From contig CAWEEQ010000004.1 of assembly GCA_963808235.1 (NCBI GenBank), forward strand, positions 1,728,001 through 1,792,000: DNA of 64,000 nt. Reading direction: 5' to 3'. The notes below the pieces were generated by a model, which was not told the origin of the DNA, made no database searches, and was given only the letters and a program-made list of their open reading frames with translations. Source of the DNA: an uncultured delta proteobacterium. Its GTDB lineage: Bacteria; Desulfobacterota; Binatia; Binatales; Binataceae. Shown here piece after piece: positions 19,924 through 39,177 of the stretch; the first letter of the stretch is position 1; each line of letters starts with the position of its first letter. The position numbers and the translations under genes are program-made.

Positions 19924-19951
19924 TAGTGGCACGGGCGTCCCTGCCCGTGAT
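19924..19951. repeat. REP-like palindrome, family C
   Basis: tagtggcacgggcgtccctgcccgtgat, identical 28-mer at 30020-30047. Confidence 0.8.
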
Positions 19952-19963
19952 AAATGCGAACAC

Positions 19964-21206
19964 GATGGCATCGACGCCGAACCAATCTCCAGCGAACGCA
20001 ATAATCGATCCATTAATGGGCCAGCTCGAGGTGCTCGAGCCGGGAATCGCGATGTTTCACGGATTTGCGAATGTCGCGTTCGCGTACGGGCGCGGCGAGA
20101 TGATCGTCGTCGATACCAGTTCGCGGCAGATGGGCCCAATCGCGGTGCGCGCGATTCGCGAGGTCAGCCAGGAACCGTTCGCGTTCCTGGTCTATACGCA
20201 TGGGCATGGCGATCACGCTTTCGGCACCGAGGCGTTTATCACCGACGCGCTCTCGCGCGGCCATGCGCGGCCCAGAATCTGGGCGCACGAGGACGTGACC
20301 GCTCGCTTCAGGCGCTACGCGCTCACCCGCCAATGGCAGGCGCATATCAACCGCCTCCAGTTCGGCACGATGTTGCGGCTCGACGATATGTTCAGCGAGA
20401 AGTCATTCAGTTATCCAGACCTCGTATATCGCAACACGCAATTTCTTGACCTGCTCGGCGAGCCGGTGGAATTGCATCACGCGATGGGCGAGACGGACGA
20501 TGCGACGTGGGTCTGGATGCCGACCCGGAAACTCGCGATGGTCGGCGATCTGATCGTCTCTTCGATGCCGAACACTGGCAATCCGAACAAGGTGCAACGC
20601 TACACGCTCGAGTGGGCGCAAGCGCTCGAAGCGATCGCTAAATGCGCTCCACGCATTGTGCTGCCGGGACACGGGCCGGCATATCGCGGTGAAGAGCTAT
20701 GCGACGAAGTGCTCCGCGAAACGGCGCGCGCGCTCAGAATCATCCACGACGAAGTCGTGCGACGCCTAAACGCCGGCGAATGGCCGGTAGATATAATTGA
20801 AGCCGATATTTCGTTACCCGCCGATCTCGCCGCGAAACCATACCTGCGGCCAATCTACGGATGCGTCCCGTTCGTAGTGCGCGACGTTATCCGACGCTAC
20901 GCAGGATGGTGGTCCGGCGAGCCGTCGCAGATGTTTCCGGCATCGCGCAAGGATCACGGCGGTGACTTGGTCGCGCTATGCGGCCGCGACGCGATGCTCG
21001 CAAAGGCCCGCGCGCTGAAGGACGAAGGCCAGTTGAAGCGCGCGCTAGCGATCGCGGAGATCGCGCTGGACGCTGATTCATCCGACAAGGATGCGGCGGT
21101 TCTAAACGCAGAAATCCTCGAAGCGATGGCGTCAGCCGAGCAATCGTTCATCGCCCGCAACTTCTTCGCAGGCGCAGCCCGCCAACTCAGAGAGCGTACG
21201 AAATAG
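19964..21206 (+). CDS. Alkyl sulfatase-like metallo-beta-lactamase
   Basis: YTHGHGDH, GETDDATWVW, PNTGNPNKVQRY, LPGHG and a dimerisation-type C-terminus. Confidence 0.88.
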
Positions 21207-21235
21207 CTCAAGCTACATTTCTGGCGCGTCTTTAA

Positions 21236-21741
21236 TCATTGTGTCATCCCGAGCGAAGCCGAGGGACCCCGGATCTTTCTCGACGCCGATCACTTCGACC
21301 CCGCTTAAGGCGCGCGGAGCCGAGCAGCTCCGAATCCGTTGCGTCACTCGGAGCTCAAACCAGCCCATGCCGGATTCATCGATTCGATCAGTAATTTCTG
21401 CCGCTTCTTTTCATTGTGTCATCCCGAGCGAAGCCGAGGGACCCCGAATCTTTCTCGACGCCGATCACTTCGACCCCGCTTAGGGCCCGCGGAGCCGAGC
21501 AGCTCCGAATCCGTTGCGTCACTCGGAGCTCAAATCATCCCACTCGGGATTCATCGATTCGATCAGTAATTTCTGCCGCTTCTTTTCATTGTGTCATCCC
21601 GAGCGAAGCCGAGGGACCCCGAATCTTTCTCGACGCCGATCACTTCGACCCCGCTTAAGGCGCGCGGAGCCGAGCAGCTCCGAATCCGTTGCGTCACTCG
21701 GAGCTCAAATCATCCCACTCGGGATTCATCGATTCGATCAG
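21236..21741. repeat. Tandem array of 175-bp units x3 (left end of GIY-YIG element plus last 16 codons of the gene)
   Basis: Units start at 21236, 21411 and 21586; the third runs into the intact gene. Confidence 0.95.
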
Positions 21742-22076
21742 CTTGATTTTCTTCGCACGCGTCCAATTCTTCAGTTGCTTTTCGCGCGAGATAGCTGCGG
21801 ATGCATCCGCGAATTCTTCGAACCAGACTAGCCGAGAAATGTTGTAGGTGGCGGTGAACCCAGGCGTCACCTTGATCCGATGCTCATTCATGCGCCGGGC
21901 CAGATCGTTCGTTACTCCGATGTAGATGGTGCGCGATGGGCTCGCGGCGATGTATACGAAGAAGGAGGAGCGTGCTTTGCCCATAGGCAGCTCGGCTCAG
22001 CGTGCCCCAAGCGAGGCCGAGGTGGCCGGCGTCGAGAAAGATCCGGGGTCCCTCGGCTGCGCTCGGGATGACACAA
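21589..22076 (-). mobile_element. Putative GIY-YIG mini-element with terminal inverted repeats
   Basis: 21589-21638 is the reverse complement of 22027-22076 (2 mismatches) and the similarity continues imperfectly ~40 bp inward; the sole cargo is a GIY-YIG gene. Confidence 0.7.
21694..21984 (-). CDS. Stand-alone GIY-YIG nuclease (96 aa)
   Basis: VYIAAS...IYIGVTNDLARRMNEH, GFT..YN..RLVWFE, AISREKQLKNW.R.KK..LIE..NPEWDDL. Confidence 0.93.
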   Translation of the reverse strand: MGKARSSFFVYIAASPSRTIYIGVTNDLARRMNEHRIKVTPGFTATYNISRLVWFEEFADASAAISREKQLKNWTRAKKIKLIESMNPEWDDLSSE

Positions 22077-22497
22077 AGAAATGACACCGAAATAATGCGA
22101 TGCGCCGGGCTAGATCGTTCGTAACTCCGATGTAGATGGTACGCGATGGGCTCGCGGCGATGTATACGAAGAAGGAGGAGCGTGCTTTACCCATAGGCAG
22201 CTCGGCTCAGCGTGCCCCAAGCGAGGCCGAGGTGGCCGGCGTCGAGAAAGATCCGGGGTCCCTCGGCTGCGCTCGGGATGACACAAAGAAATGACACCGA
22301 AATAACGCGATGCGCCGCGCCAAATCGTTCGTTACTCCGATGTAGATGGTGCGCGATGGGCTCGCGGCAATGTATACGAAGAAGGAGGAGCGTGCTTTAC
22401 CCATAGGCAGCTCGGCTCAGCGTGCCCCAAGCGAGGCCGAGGTGGCCGGCGTCGAGAAAGATCCGGGGTCCCTCGGCTTCGCTCGGGATGACACAAA
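21890..22497. repeat. Tandem array of 210-bp units x3 (first ~31 codons of the gene plus right end of element)
   Basis: Units start at 21890, 22100 and 22310; they generate truncated ORFs 21997-22194 and 22207-22404. Confidence 0.95.
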
Positions 22498-22593
22498 AAT
22501 AACTCGGGATGATACAAAGATGAGATGACACAAAGATCAAATGACACAAAGATGAAGTGATACACAAAGATGAAGTGGCACGGAAATAACGCG
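22487..22593. repeat. Degenerate 17-21 bp microrepeats of the element tip (ATGACACAAAGA)
   Basis: gatgacacaaaaat, gatgatacaaagat, gatgacacaaagat, aatgacacaaagat, tgatacacaaagat. Confidence 0.8.
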
Positions 22594-22617: not shown

Positions 22618-24885
<2,268 letters not shown>

Positions 24886-26799: not shown

Positions 26800-26838
26800 C
26801 GTCACCTATGCATTCCTACCGTCACCTATGCATTCCTA
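26800..26838. repeat. 20-bp tandem direct repeat
   Basis: cgtcacctatgcattccta twice at a 20-bp period, just before TTGACG at 26842. Confidence 0.8.
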
Positions 26839-26995
26839 TCGTTGACGATCAGAACTACCGGTGCTAATAGCCTCCCCAGATCGTAGCAGGTCGCTGCTAC
26901 GGACTTTGTACTTCTTGGTCGTCTAACTCCATTTTCGCGGACGCGACCGGACAACTTCGGAGGACTCGCGGCCCGCTTTTCGGGGGTGACATTCG

Positions 26996-28663
26996 ATGAA
27001 AGTTTCGTGCGCAGAGAACCCGCGCGTCGGGCTGCTTATCGGCCTGCTCGCAATCACCTTCCTATTGATCGCGCAGCCGGCGTTCGCCACACCGGCATGC
27101 ACCGTCACGGCGCTGCAGGCGCTATTCCCACCTGCGACTGACACGACGATCACTTCAGCAACCCTGTCGGGAGCAAATTGCATCGTGAAGGGCGCGATCG
27201 CGACGACCTCCGGCACCCAGACCGGCAAAGTGCTCTTCGCAGTCGGACTGCCTGCGCCGGCAGCGTGGAACGGCCGTTTCGTGTTTGTCGGGGGTGGAGG
27301 TTTTCAGGGCAGCCTGCCCTCACCAACTGCACTGCTCCCGTTCGGTTTTGCGGAAGCCGTGACCGATACCGGTCATGAATCGATCTTTGGTCCCGCCGCA
27401 TCGCTTGACGGCAGCTTCGCCCTTATCGAGCCCGGCAATATTCCGAACATGGCCGCGATCGAGGATTTCGCGTATCGCGCTGTTCATCTCAGCACCGTCG
27501 CGGGTCAGAGCCTGACCAACCAGTACTACGGCTCGCCGATGTTCTCGTATTTCGACGGATGCTCGACGGGTGGACGCCAGGCGCTGGTCGAGGCGCAGAA
27601 ATTCCCAGACGACTTCAACGGGATCGTCGCCGGCGACCCGGCAATCAGCGATCCGATCGCAGGATTTAACTGGAACGATCTGGCCCTGCTCACAGACTCC
27701 ACCGGTGACAGCTGGCTGCCGCCCGCCCAGATCGCTGTGCTCGATGCGGCCGTGACCGCCGCCTGCGACGGCTCTGACGGCGTGATCGACGGCTTGATCG
27801 AAGATCCGCGCCTGTGCAAGTTCGATCCGGCGTCGATCCAATGCAGCAAAAAGCTCACCTCCAACTGCCTCACCGCGGCGCAGGTCGCGACAGTCAAGAA
27901 GATTTATGCCGGCGCGACGACTCCCGACGGTACGCAGCTCTATCCCGGCTATTCGGCCAGCAACCCGGGCGGCAACGACGGATGGGAGCTGTGGATTACC
28001 GGATTTGCGCAACCGCCCGACGGATTCGGGGTCGACAATCCGTACGGCGTCGTTCCCGCATCGTTCGGCGCCGCGCCGCTCCAGTTCTCGTTCCAGGACC
28101 AGTTCATGAAGTACTTCGTCTTCGATGACCCGTTGTACAATTCGCTCACTTTCGATTTCACCGATCCAACCCAGGTCGCGCTGCTCAACACGGTCATCAC
28201 GAATTTCAACTCCAACGGCGAGGACACCGACCTTTCGCCGTTCTTCGGCGCCGGCGGCAAGCTGGTCATGTACCACGGATGGAGCGATCCGGCGCTGACG
28301 CCGTTCGTCAGCGTGGACTACTACTCAGCAGTGGCCAAGACGCTCGGCGGCGGCTTCAAGCATCTGCAAGACAACGCGCGCCTGTTCATGGTGCCTGGGA
28401 TGCATCACTGCTCCGGCGGTCCTGGCCCCTACAACTTCGACCCGCTGTCTCCGCTCATCGCATGGGTTGAGACTGGGACCGCGCCCGACAGCATAATTGG
28501 CGAGGTACCGGCAGGCCCGCAGGCAGGTCGCACTTTCCCGCTCTGCCCGTTTCCGAGTCTCGCGGTCTTTCAAGGCGGCAACGTGAACGACGCGGCGAAC
28601 TGGGTGTGCAAGGCGCACACCAACCAACGCTTCGGCCATGGCAAAGGCCATCATCATGGATGA
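26996..28663 (+). CDS. Secreted tannase/feruloyl esterase family hydrolase
   Basis: WNGRF..GGGG, TDTGH, GCSTGGRQ, YHGWSD, LFMVPGMHHC, PLCPFP. Confidence 0.93.
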   Translation: MKVSCAENPRVGLLIGLLAITFLLIAQPAFATPACTVTALQALFPPATDTTITSATLSGANCIVKGAIATTSGTQTGKVLFAVGLPAPAAWNGRFVFVGGGGFQGSLPSPTALLPFGFAEAVTDTGHESIFGPAASLDGSFALIEPGNIPNMAAIEDFAYRAVHLSTVAGQSLTNQYYGSPMFSYFDGCSTGGRQALVEAQKFPDDFNGIVAGDPAISDPIAGFNWNDLALLTDSTGDSWLPPAQIAVLDAAVTAACDGSDGVIDGLIEDPRLCKFDPASIQCSKKLTSNCLTAAQVATVKKIYAGATTPDGTQLYPGYSASNPGGNDGWELWITGFAQPPDGFGVDNPYGVVPASFGAAPLQFSFQDQFMKYFVFDDPLYNSLTFDFTDPTQVALLNTVITNFNSNGEDTDLSPFFGAGGKLVMYHGWSDPALTPFVSVDYYSAVAKTLGGGFKHLQDNARLFMVPGMHHCSGGPGPYNFDPLSPLIAWVETGTAPDSIIGEVPAGPQAGRTFPLCPFPSLAVFQGGNVNDAANWVCKAHTNQRFGHGKGHHHG

Positions 28664-39128: not shown

Positions 39129-39177
39129 GGCGTAGAGAAAGATCCGGGGTCCCTCGGCTTCGCTCGGGATGACACAA
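39129..39177. repeat. Solo copy of the GIY-YIG element terminal repeat (family A)
   Basis: ggcgtagagaaagatccggggtccctcggcttcgctcgggatgacacaa, 1 mismatch to 22448-22496. Confidence 0.9.

Follow-up and report, generated by a model that had tools for sequence, protein, structure and literature searches.

The question raised by this locus is how a gene for a 96-aa nuclease came to be enclosed by inverted repeats of which both ends, each with a piece of the gene, are present three times in tandem. Our analysis of the window (the whole stretch of 64,000 nucleotides) points to an answer in which both cassette ends were apparently duplicated, from points just outside the expected cut sites of the encoded enzyme onward, out of gene versions brought in by inter-strain recombination. 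For the gene product, GIY-YIG (PF01541, E 1.5e-14) was the sole Pfam family matched. The gene is enclosed by inverted arms of 90-98 nt with 86-89% complementarity and 3 mismatches in the outer 54 nt, and the cassette measures 482 bp from tag to tag (21592-22073), or about 488 bp with the TTGTG lead-in. This architecture had been described in an earlier note made from the sequence alone, which gave a near-perfect outer 50 bp and a total of 488 bp, and it was borne out. The same holds for the triplication of the left end in units of 175 nt (at 21236, 21411 and 21586) and of the right end in units of 210 nt (at 21890, 22100 and 22310; 96% matches in TRF). Left units include the last 15 codons and the stop, counted before as 16 codons, and right units the first 95 nt, that is 31 codons. 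The flanks had been put at about 20 and 23 bp; measured on the inner flanks up to the G of GTCAT, they are 26 nt long on the left and 27 nt on the right. Array copies differ by 2-8 substitutions per pair; left copy 1 is the most diverged left copy, with 6 differences from copy 3 and 8 from copy 2. In the inner left repeat, whose 5′ end points outward, the SRM is followed by an imperfect extension of about 55 nt. Absent from the earlier description was an array of truncated SRM 5′ halves with one 21-bp unit and then four 16-bp units at 22509-22574.

Table 1. Coordinates of the cassette, its amplified ends and the neighbouring genes in the window.
Feature	Position	Strand	Remarks
ssn gene, 96-aa single-domain GIY-YIG nuclease	21694..21984	-	Y11, Y21, E68 = SsnA Y6, Y17, E64
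Inner left inverted repeat	21592..21678	+	SRM (TGTCAT tag, G at 21593, hairpin, tail)
Inner right inverted repeat	21987..22073	-	SRM (G at 22072) + extension; 5′ end outward
Left copy 1 (outermost)	21217..21391	+	outer flank, SRM arm, last 15 codons + stop
Left copy 2	21392..21566	+	26-nt inner flank, SRM arm, gene-identical last 15 codons + stop
Inner left flank	21567..21591	+	precedes intact left SRM
Inner right flank, junction J1	22074..22099	-	one truncated GTCAT half-site inside
Right copy 2	22100..22309	-	flank, SRM arm, first 31 codons; 4 synonymous differences vs gene
Right copy 3 (outermost)	22310..22497	-	SRM arm, first 31 codons; 4 synonymous differences
Truncated SRM 5′ half array	22498..22593	-	cut side of outermost right SRM
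Host neighbour: alkyl-sulfatase-like metallo-beta-lactamase-fold protein	19926..21206	+	convergent with uvrB
Host neighbour: uvrB	22618..24885	-	

The core of the locus is the known SRM-ssnA-SRM system (Chenal et al. 2025, PMC11893778); taken by itself, the cassette is a new but unremarkable representative of this published family. Ssn proteins have been described as single-domain GIY-YIG proteins flanked by hairpin repeats that cut ssDNA a few nucleotides 5′ of the repeat, which was shown for four homologues; SsnA cuts transforming DNA in vivo, and a role of Ssn in repeat expansion was put forward there as a hypothesis only (PMC11893778). From NTS75 the enzyme frees a 20-nt fragment (PMC11893778), a cut that lies 5 nt before the G when counted by us on the published oligo. 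The window protein agrees with the family in size (96 aa, family limit <150 aa), in carrying PF01541 alone and in its conserved catalytic residues (Table 1), the three that were mutated in PMC11893778. With the 94-aa SsnA orthologue of N. gonorrhoeae (L341, NTS on both sides), which served for the comparison rather than the N. meningitidis sequence itself, it shares 43 of 85 residues (51%), at E values of 8e-19 (tblastn) and 2e-28 (pairwise) and with more than 75% cover, the family cut-off being E < 1e-10 and >75% cover. The published SRM pattern had no exact match among the six focal repeats and matched all six when one mismatch was allowed; their orientation is inward, as expected. In a tree of 53 rows a clade of 31 rows (98/99) is accompanied by GTCATCCCG-type repeats and a separate clade of nine rows (98/96) by GTCATTC-type repeats. 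Judged from these sequences, the repeat variant appears to track the protein subfamily, which is to be read as an association only, as kin share labels. The flanking of homologues by cognate repeats, as expected in the earlier note, was recovered. The same note had proposed a selfish unit comparable to RAYT and REP, a reading that was upheld in part; both the pairing of enzyme and repeat and the analogy, namely an IS-like NTS-ssnA-NTS layout and a likeness to REP-associated transposases, were already in print (PMC11893778).

Among the nearest homologues with a name are Candidatus Binatus records. A PDB sequence search with the nuclease returned weak UPF0213 matches only (best E 0.006), and NCBIfam had no family matching it. 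Phage and plasmid collections yielded 3 and 37 records, several of the plasmid records being chromosome-sized, and there is therefore no sign of a phage- or plasmid-borne lifestyle in these collections. The genome of the window (G000) encodes four full-length ssn genes, each with its own repeat variant, and contains 113 repeat copies at E<0.01. Its three other ssn genes (C4:1803789-1804600, 2935100-2936300 and 658600-659200) have 57-69% protein identity to the window gene and are accompanied by SRM variants of their own and by local arrays or half-site runs. The longest half-site array of the genome (C4:3121830-3121998) consists of nine truncated SRM 5′ halves of 17-19 bp right before an intact SRM. 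Within the window, more SRM-like copies were found at 39173, 40435, 40564 and 40585 (all on the minus strand), one with the arm extension. A 20-bp direct repeat at 26800-26842 (2.2 copies, 95% match), upstream of a 555-aa ORF at 26996, is unrelated to the SRMs and possibly a regulator site.

Evidence that the repeats are duplicated from one side comes from 225 SRMs (of 230 distinct contexts) in 15 genomes of the genus and G000, all of which are kin. A tandem copy extends across the 5′ (cut-side) edge in 31 of them and across the mirrored 3′ position in 3; the tandem search is unbiased, and block shuffles of the flanks gave 0-2 (5′) and 0 (3′). Partial tags near SRMs are likewise more frequent upstream (22) than downstream (4), with 2.9 in shuffles (n=133). 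The short units are mostly 12-18 bp long, and most end before the 3′ arm of the hairpin. In simple two-copy cases the match spans the G, from about 3-13 nt upstream of it to 2-10 nt downstream, and in the two focal arrays strict identity stops at -7 and -5. The long focal units begin 26-27 nt before the G, which is farther out than the published cut. Among tandem arrays of the genome, 8 of 53 with a period of at least 40 contain an SRM, compared with 0.75 at random, as do all four with a period of at least 100 and at least 96% matches. Long SRM tandem arrays in relatives are few and mostly degenerate, and the boundaries of long units rest on a handful of arrays. More distant taxa gave 13 (5′) versus 6 (3′) of 138, five of the six being tandems of the whole repeat, and carry the same truncated units, for example in Planktothrix (L343). 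The asymmetry is weak for Neisseria NTS (4 versus 1 of 54), and a pattern search in five distant genomes found one match in total. The Planktothrix agardhii cassette, on plasmid NZ_LR882964.1, lies between an MmeI-type gene and DISARM drmA and carries half-site arrays of 23 and 32 bp. Single-orientation clusters were found on the predicted leading strand in 21 of 59 cases (P 0.036), a figure to be read with a weak GC skew and a contig that is perhaps not the whole chromosome. The two focal ends are on opposite strands, which limits a reading by replication-strand bias.

The copies themselves give an indication of where the duplicated DNA came from. The three right copies differ at seven coding sites, and every one of these differences is synonymous, against an expectation of 27-32% per site (P 1e-4 to 4e-4, for seven sites in non-independent copies). 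When the sister locus L375 (90% identical) is taken as outgroup, codons 2, 28 and 29 of the outermost right copy prove to have the ancestral base, so that it was the functional lineage that gained three synonymous changes after the split; three other synonymous changes are private to the middle copy. For a dead copy as old as the outermost one, a hand calculation gives about 7 expected amino-acid changes, and none was observed. Furthermore, the inner flanks match the flanks of L375 better than the outer flanks of the locus do: the flank at junction J1 can be aligned gap-free with the proximal flank of L375, and the inner left flank keeps a stretch that is present in L375 and lost from the outer flank of the locus. 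Since the differences are synonymous only and the inner flanks sister-like, the arrays look like composites of different functional alleles. Left copy 1 blurs this: of its three amino-acid changes, one is ancestral-like (Ala89, in 9 of 12 homologues). The other two do not resemble an allele (all 12 of 12 homologues have GAT for D92), and some decay therefore occurred in this copy. Elsewhere in the genome a 283-bp unit containing an SRM head-to-head dimer is repeated 2.7 times (C4:1002040-1002900, array C4:1002088). Its units include the in-frame and clearly diverged last 18 or so codons plus stop of the upstream gene, together with a diverged spacer, which suggests that this array was likewise built from another allele. 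The allele data need inter-strain recombination, and they fit a first junction made from donor DNA as well as one made within the chromosome.

The explanation we prefer, to which we would give about an even chance, is that Ssn-cut ends, probably of incoming donor DNA, were joined additively and then expanded by unequal recombination. Starting from the cassette in the convergent uvrB/sulfatase junction, the enzyme would bind its own hairpin on ssDNA and, by analogy with its studied homologues, cut a few nucleotides 5′ of GTCAT, and the cuts would fall just outside each cassette end on opposite strands. Each cut would yield a fragment beginning at the repeat. Such a fragment from a related strain would pair by homology over the gene and beyond, and its cut 5′ end would be joined illegitimately to a point farther inside the resident copy, so that the new allele would come to lie inside and a truncated remnant of the old one outside. 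One such event would have taken place at each cassette end, and the third copy at the same junction would stem from unequal recombination with another duplicated allele. Half-site arrays of 12-35 bp would represent a small-scale version of the same cut-side event, and the arrays as a whole would be scars rather than working parts. Precedents exist for both steps: in homology-facilitated illegitimate recombination one end of the donor DNA is joined by homology and the opposite end illegitimately (PMC3240628), and unequal crossing-over during transformation gives tandem duplications (PMC3784515). The genome encodes comEC and dprA, yet 10 of 14 control genomes also have both above the cut-off, and the two genes carry little weight.

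The cut could also have been made in the chromosome. Here Ssn would nick a transiently single-stranded repeat, the 3′-OH would prime strand-displacement synthesis and the displaced 5′ flap would be re-ligated; DNA would be duplicated from the cut inward, and the allelic differences would enter later, by homologous recombination into separate copies. The nick-and-repair part of this idea was already contained in the earlier note and is close to the BIME amplification model. It accounts for the same 5′ polarity and for each array having the same junction twice, and a related primer-extension scheme has been published for TnpA-REP (PMC3333891). The nicking near its own termini on which it builds agrees with the reported cleavage 5′ of the repeat in this family (PMC11893778) and with duplications that start on the cut side. 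However, simple nick and repair of the resident ends is insufficient because the copies differ like functional alleles, and a second, independent process is needed for the synonymous-only differences and the sister-like inner flanks. GIY-YIG enzymes act on DNA by hydrolysis and are not known to link to it covalently through a tyrosine, and ligation of the flap by the host must therefore be assumed as well. Taken jointly with later allele exchange, we consider this route rather unlikely to be the actual one.

Both of these routes depend on the enzyme, whereas replication slippage and unequal crossing-over at the T-rich flank beside the hairpin would make ssn a bystander. A loose microhomology between left flank and gene is seen at the junction, and tandem REP clusters with flanking DNA have been described as common (PMC3733652). 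Against this, the effect is nearly absent from the controls: T-rich orphan tags have such copies in 3 of 255 cases, and other hairpin families in 0/94, 0/94, 1/106, 0/12 and 0/12 (0-1%). The early end of most short units, before the 3′ arm, does not fit either, and the synonymous-only pattern is left unexplained. GCGNAGC forms a very stable DNA mini-hairpin; calculated with ViennaRNA DNA parameters, the stability of the hairpin is ordinary (z about +1), which also speaks against slippage. We regard slippage as decidedly improbable.

A further possibility is that the assembled array partly merges co-occurring strains, say two strains that each have two copies, a mixture that would supply exactly such functional alleles, or that truncated 65-aa frames are kept by purifying selection. 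The array was compared with Logan contigs from 4 of 12 listed runs. In run X1, which may be the source sample, short-read contigs 22066-22189 and 22276-22399 bridge both right junctions with 0 differences, have 34 nt on the short side of each junction and contain the copy-specific bases. Since these bases are linked to both right junctions with 0 differences, the right junction with its variant allele exists in DNA, which counts against a mixture of strains. On the left, a contig of run X3 from another study (21537-21741, 1 difference) reaches 30 nt beyond the junction, one nucleotide short of the bridging rule. No single contig among those compared spans the whole array, as a strain mixture would predict, and three copies per molecule were not directly seen. 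Parts of the locus without read cover carry no weight either way. As to selection on the fragments, two 65-aa ORFs do open with Ssn residues 1-31, but the catalytic Glu is missing from them. Either variant would surprise us greatly.

The uvrB site was compared across the genus: the uvrB 3′ end had a match in 44 of 47 genomes, G000 among them, and 30 loci were retrieved. A sulfatase gene lies at most 1.5 kb from uvrB in 15 of the 30. Three of these 15 junctions are empty with the genes abutting, in line with the empty site anticipated before; one contains a solo SRM, one an SRM pair without gene, three contain ssn (the focal locus included), three other hairpin repeats and four other cargo. Genes for Ssn were also found at the uvrB site in L005, L375, L380, L384 and L391. 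Occupancy on the uvrB tree is patchy, and repeated gain and repeated loss are not separable by this tree; within the genus, the same protein clade occurs in several different gene contexts. Across genomes the uvrB/sulfatase junction (L032-L060) is an insertion hotspot that has taken up other cargo genes and three or more other families of hairpin repeats, among the inserts a small two-gene unit that has the appearance of a putative toxin-antitoxin pair. Two loci that are sisters on the uvrB tree share the same outer repeats: L037 (G013) has SRM-SRM-ssn-SRM with a frameshifting insertion in ssn, and in L039 (G007) the gene is missing. This difference is likely to be a route from cassette to gene-less repeat cluster.

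Amplified ends with gene fragments were found at one of 110 genome loci, the focal one; one other match was a whole second gene 2.5 kb away, and 110 slightly overstates the independent loci as L002-L006 recur among L061-L066. None was found at 80 metagenome loci, of which 50 extend for 400 nt or more to each side. Assemblies from short reads may collapse arrays of this kind. On these counts the amplified ends are a rare local outcome and not element design, contrary to the earlier note, which had taken them as a feature of the element. No consistent direct repeat surrounds 39 dimers, the longest being 0-7 nt and scattered, and with neither target-site duplications nor near-identical dispersed copies the cassette does not qualify as an IS or MITE with terminal inverted repeats. 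It is extremely unlikely that the 488-bp unit is an autonomous miniature transposon with termini amplified during its cycle: the several gene contexts of one protein clade, the three empty uvrB sites and an arm extension common to 13 of the 39 gene-less head-to-head dimers would suit it, but there is no second near-identical copy in the genome, target-site duplications are not consistent around the dimers, end amplification is confined to one locus, and the patchy occupancy fits losses as well as gains.

What these observations bear on is the transposase-free multiplication of CGTC/SRM repeats, Neisseria dRS3 included, for which Di Nocera et al. 2013 (PMC3733652) arrived at no enzyme and Chenal et al. 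2025 (PMC11893778) at a nuclease. One-sided duplications near the cut site together with allele-like copies offer a concrete and testable route via cut donor DNA, and the duplications predict the cut position for this Ssn subfamily. Neither the one-sided duplication at SRMs nor the allele-like synonymous differences of the right copies were found in print, in a search that included terms in PMC11893778 and had subscription papers and bioRxiv supplements outside its scope. Tentatively, and with more doubt than confidence, we suggest that Ssn acts beyond restriction, in that transforming strands cut 5′ of a hairpin integrate additively and duplicate the repeat per uptake. A cassette end or the end of a neighbouring gene would then sometimes be duplicated along with the repeat, the CGTC/SRM repeats would multiply by transformation without a transposase, and arrays would be ordered records of alleles with the oldest outside. 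This locus is an unusually legible scar pointing to a testable route for repeat multiplication.

Among known systems the locus is closest to the Ssn family (SsnA, CDD cd10448), with which it shares a gene of about 95 aa for a single-domain GIY-YIG protein between inward-pointing HGTCAT-tagged hairpins, the catalytic residues, dispersed repeat copies and subfamily-specific repeat variants. It differs in a repeat with a GAGCGNAGC-core stem, one base off the published pattern, in arms that reach about 90 bp, and in the tandem end duplications and 5′ half-site arrays, which find no mention in PMC11893778; the word "tandem" has 0 occurrences in its main text and 14 supplements. RAYT/TnpA-REP REPtrons likewise have an enzyme gene between cognate ssDNA hairpins and a proposed local tandem (BIME) amplification from an enzyme-made 3′-OH (Ton-Hoang et al. 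2012, PMC3333891). TnpA-REP is, however, an HUH/Y1 enzyme with strand transfer (PMC3333891), whereas for the GIY-YIG kind of nuclease at this locus cleavage alone is reported; identity with a REPtron was rejected, as GIY-YIG was the sole family matched, with no HUH/Y1 match, and the tag is TGTC/CGTC and not GTAG. CGTC-tagged REPs resemble the focal repeats in their CGTC/TGTC tag, short stem-loop and mostly head-to-head dimers (Di Nocera et al. 2013, PMC3733652), but a dedicated transposase was judged absent for them, and the portion of that paper concerned names no GIY-YIG partner. Compared with the recombination systems of PMC3240628 and PMC3784515, the illegitimate end would here be set by a site-specific ssDNA nuclease, with units of 12-300 bp.
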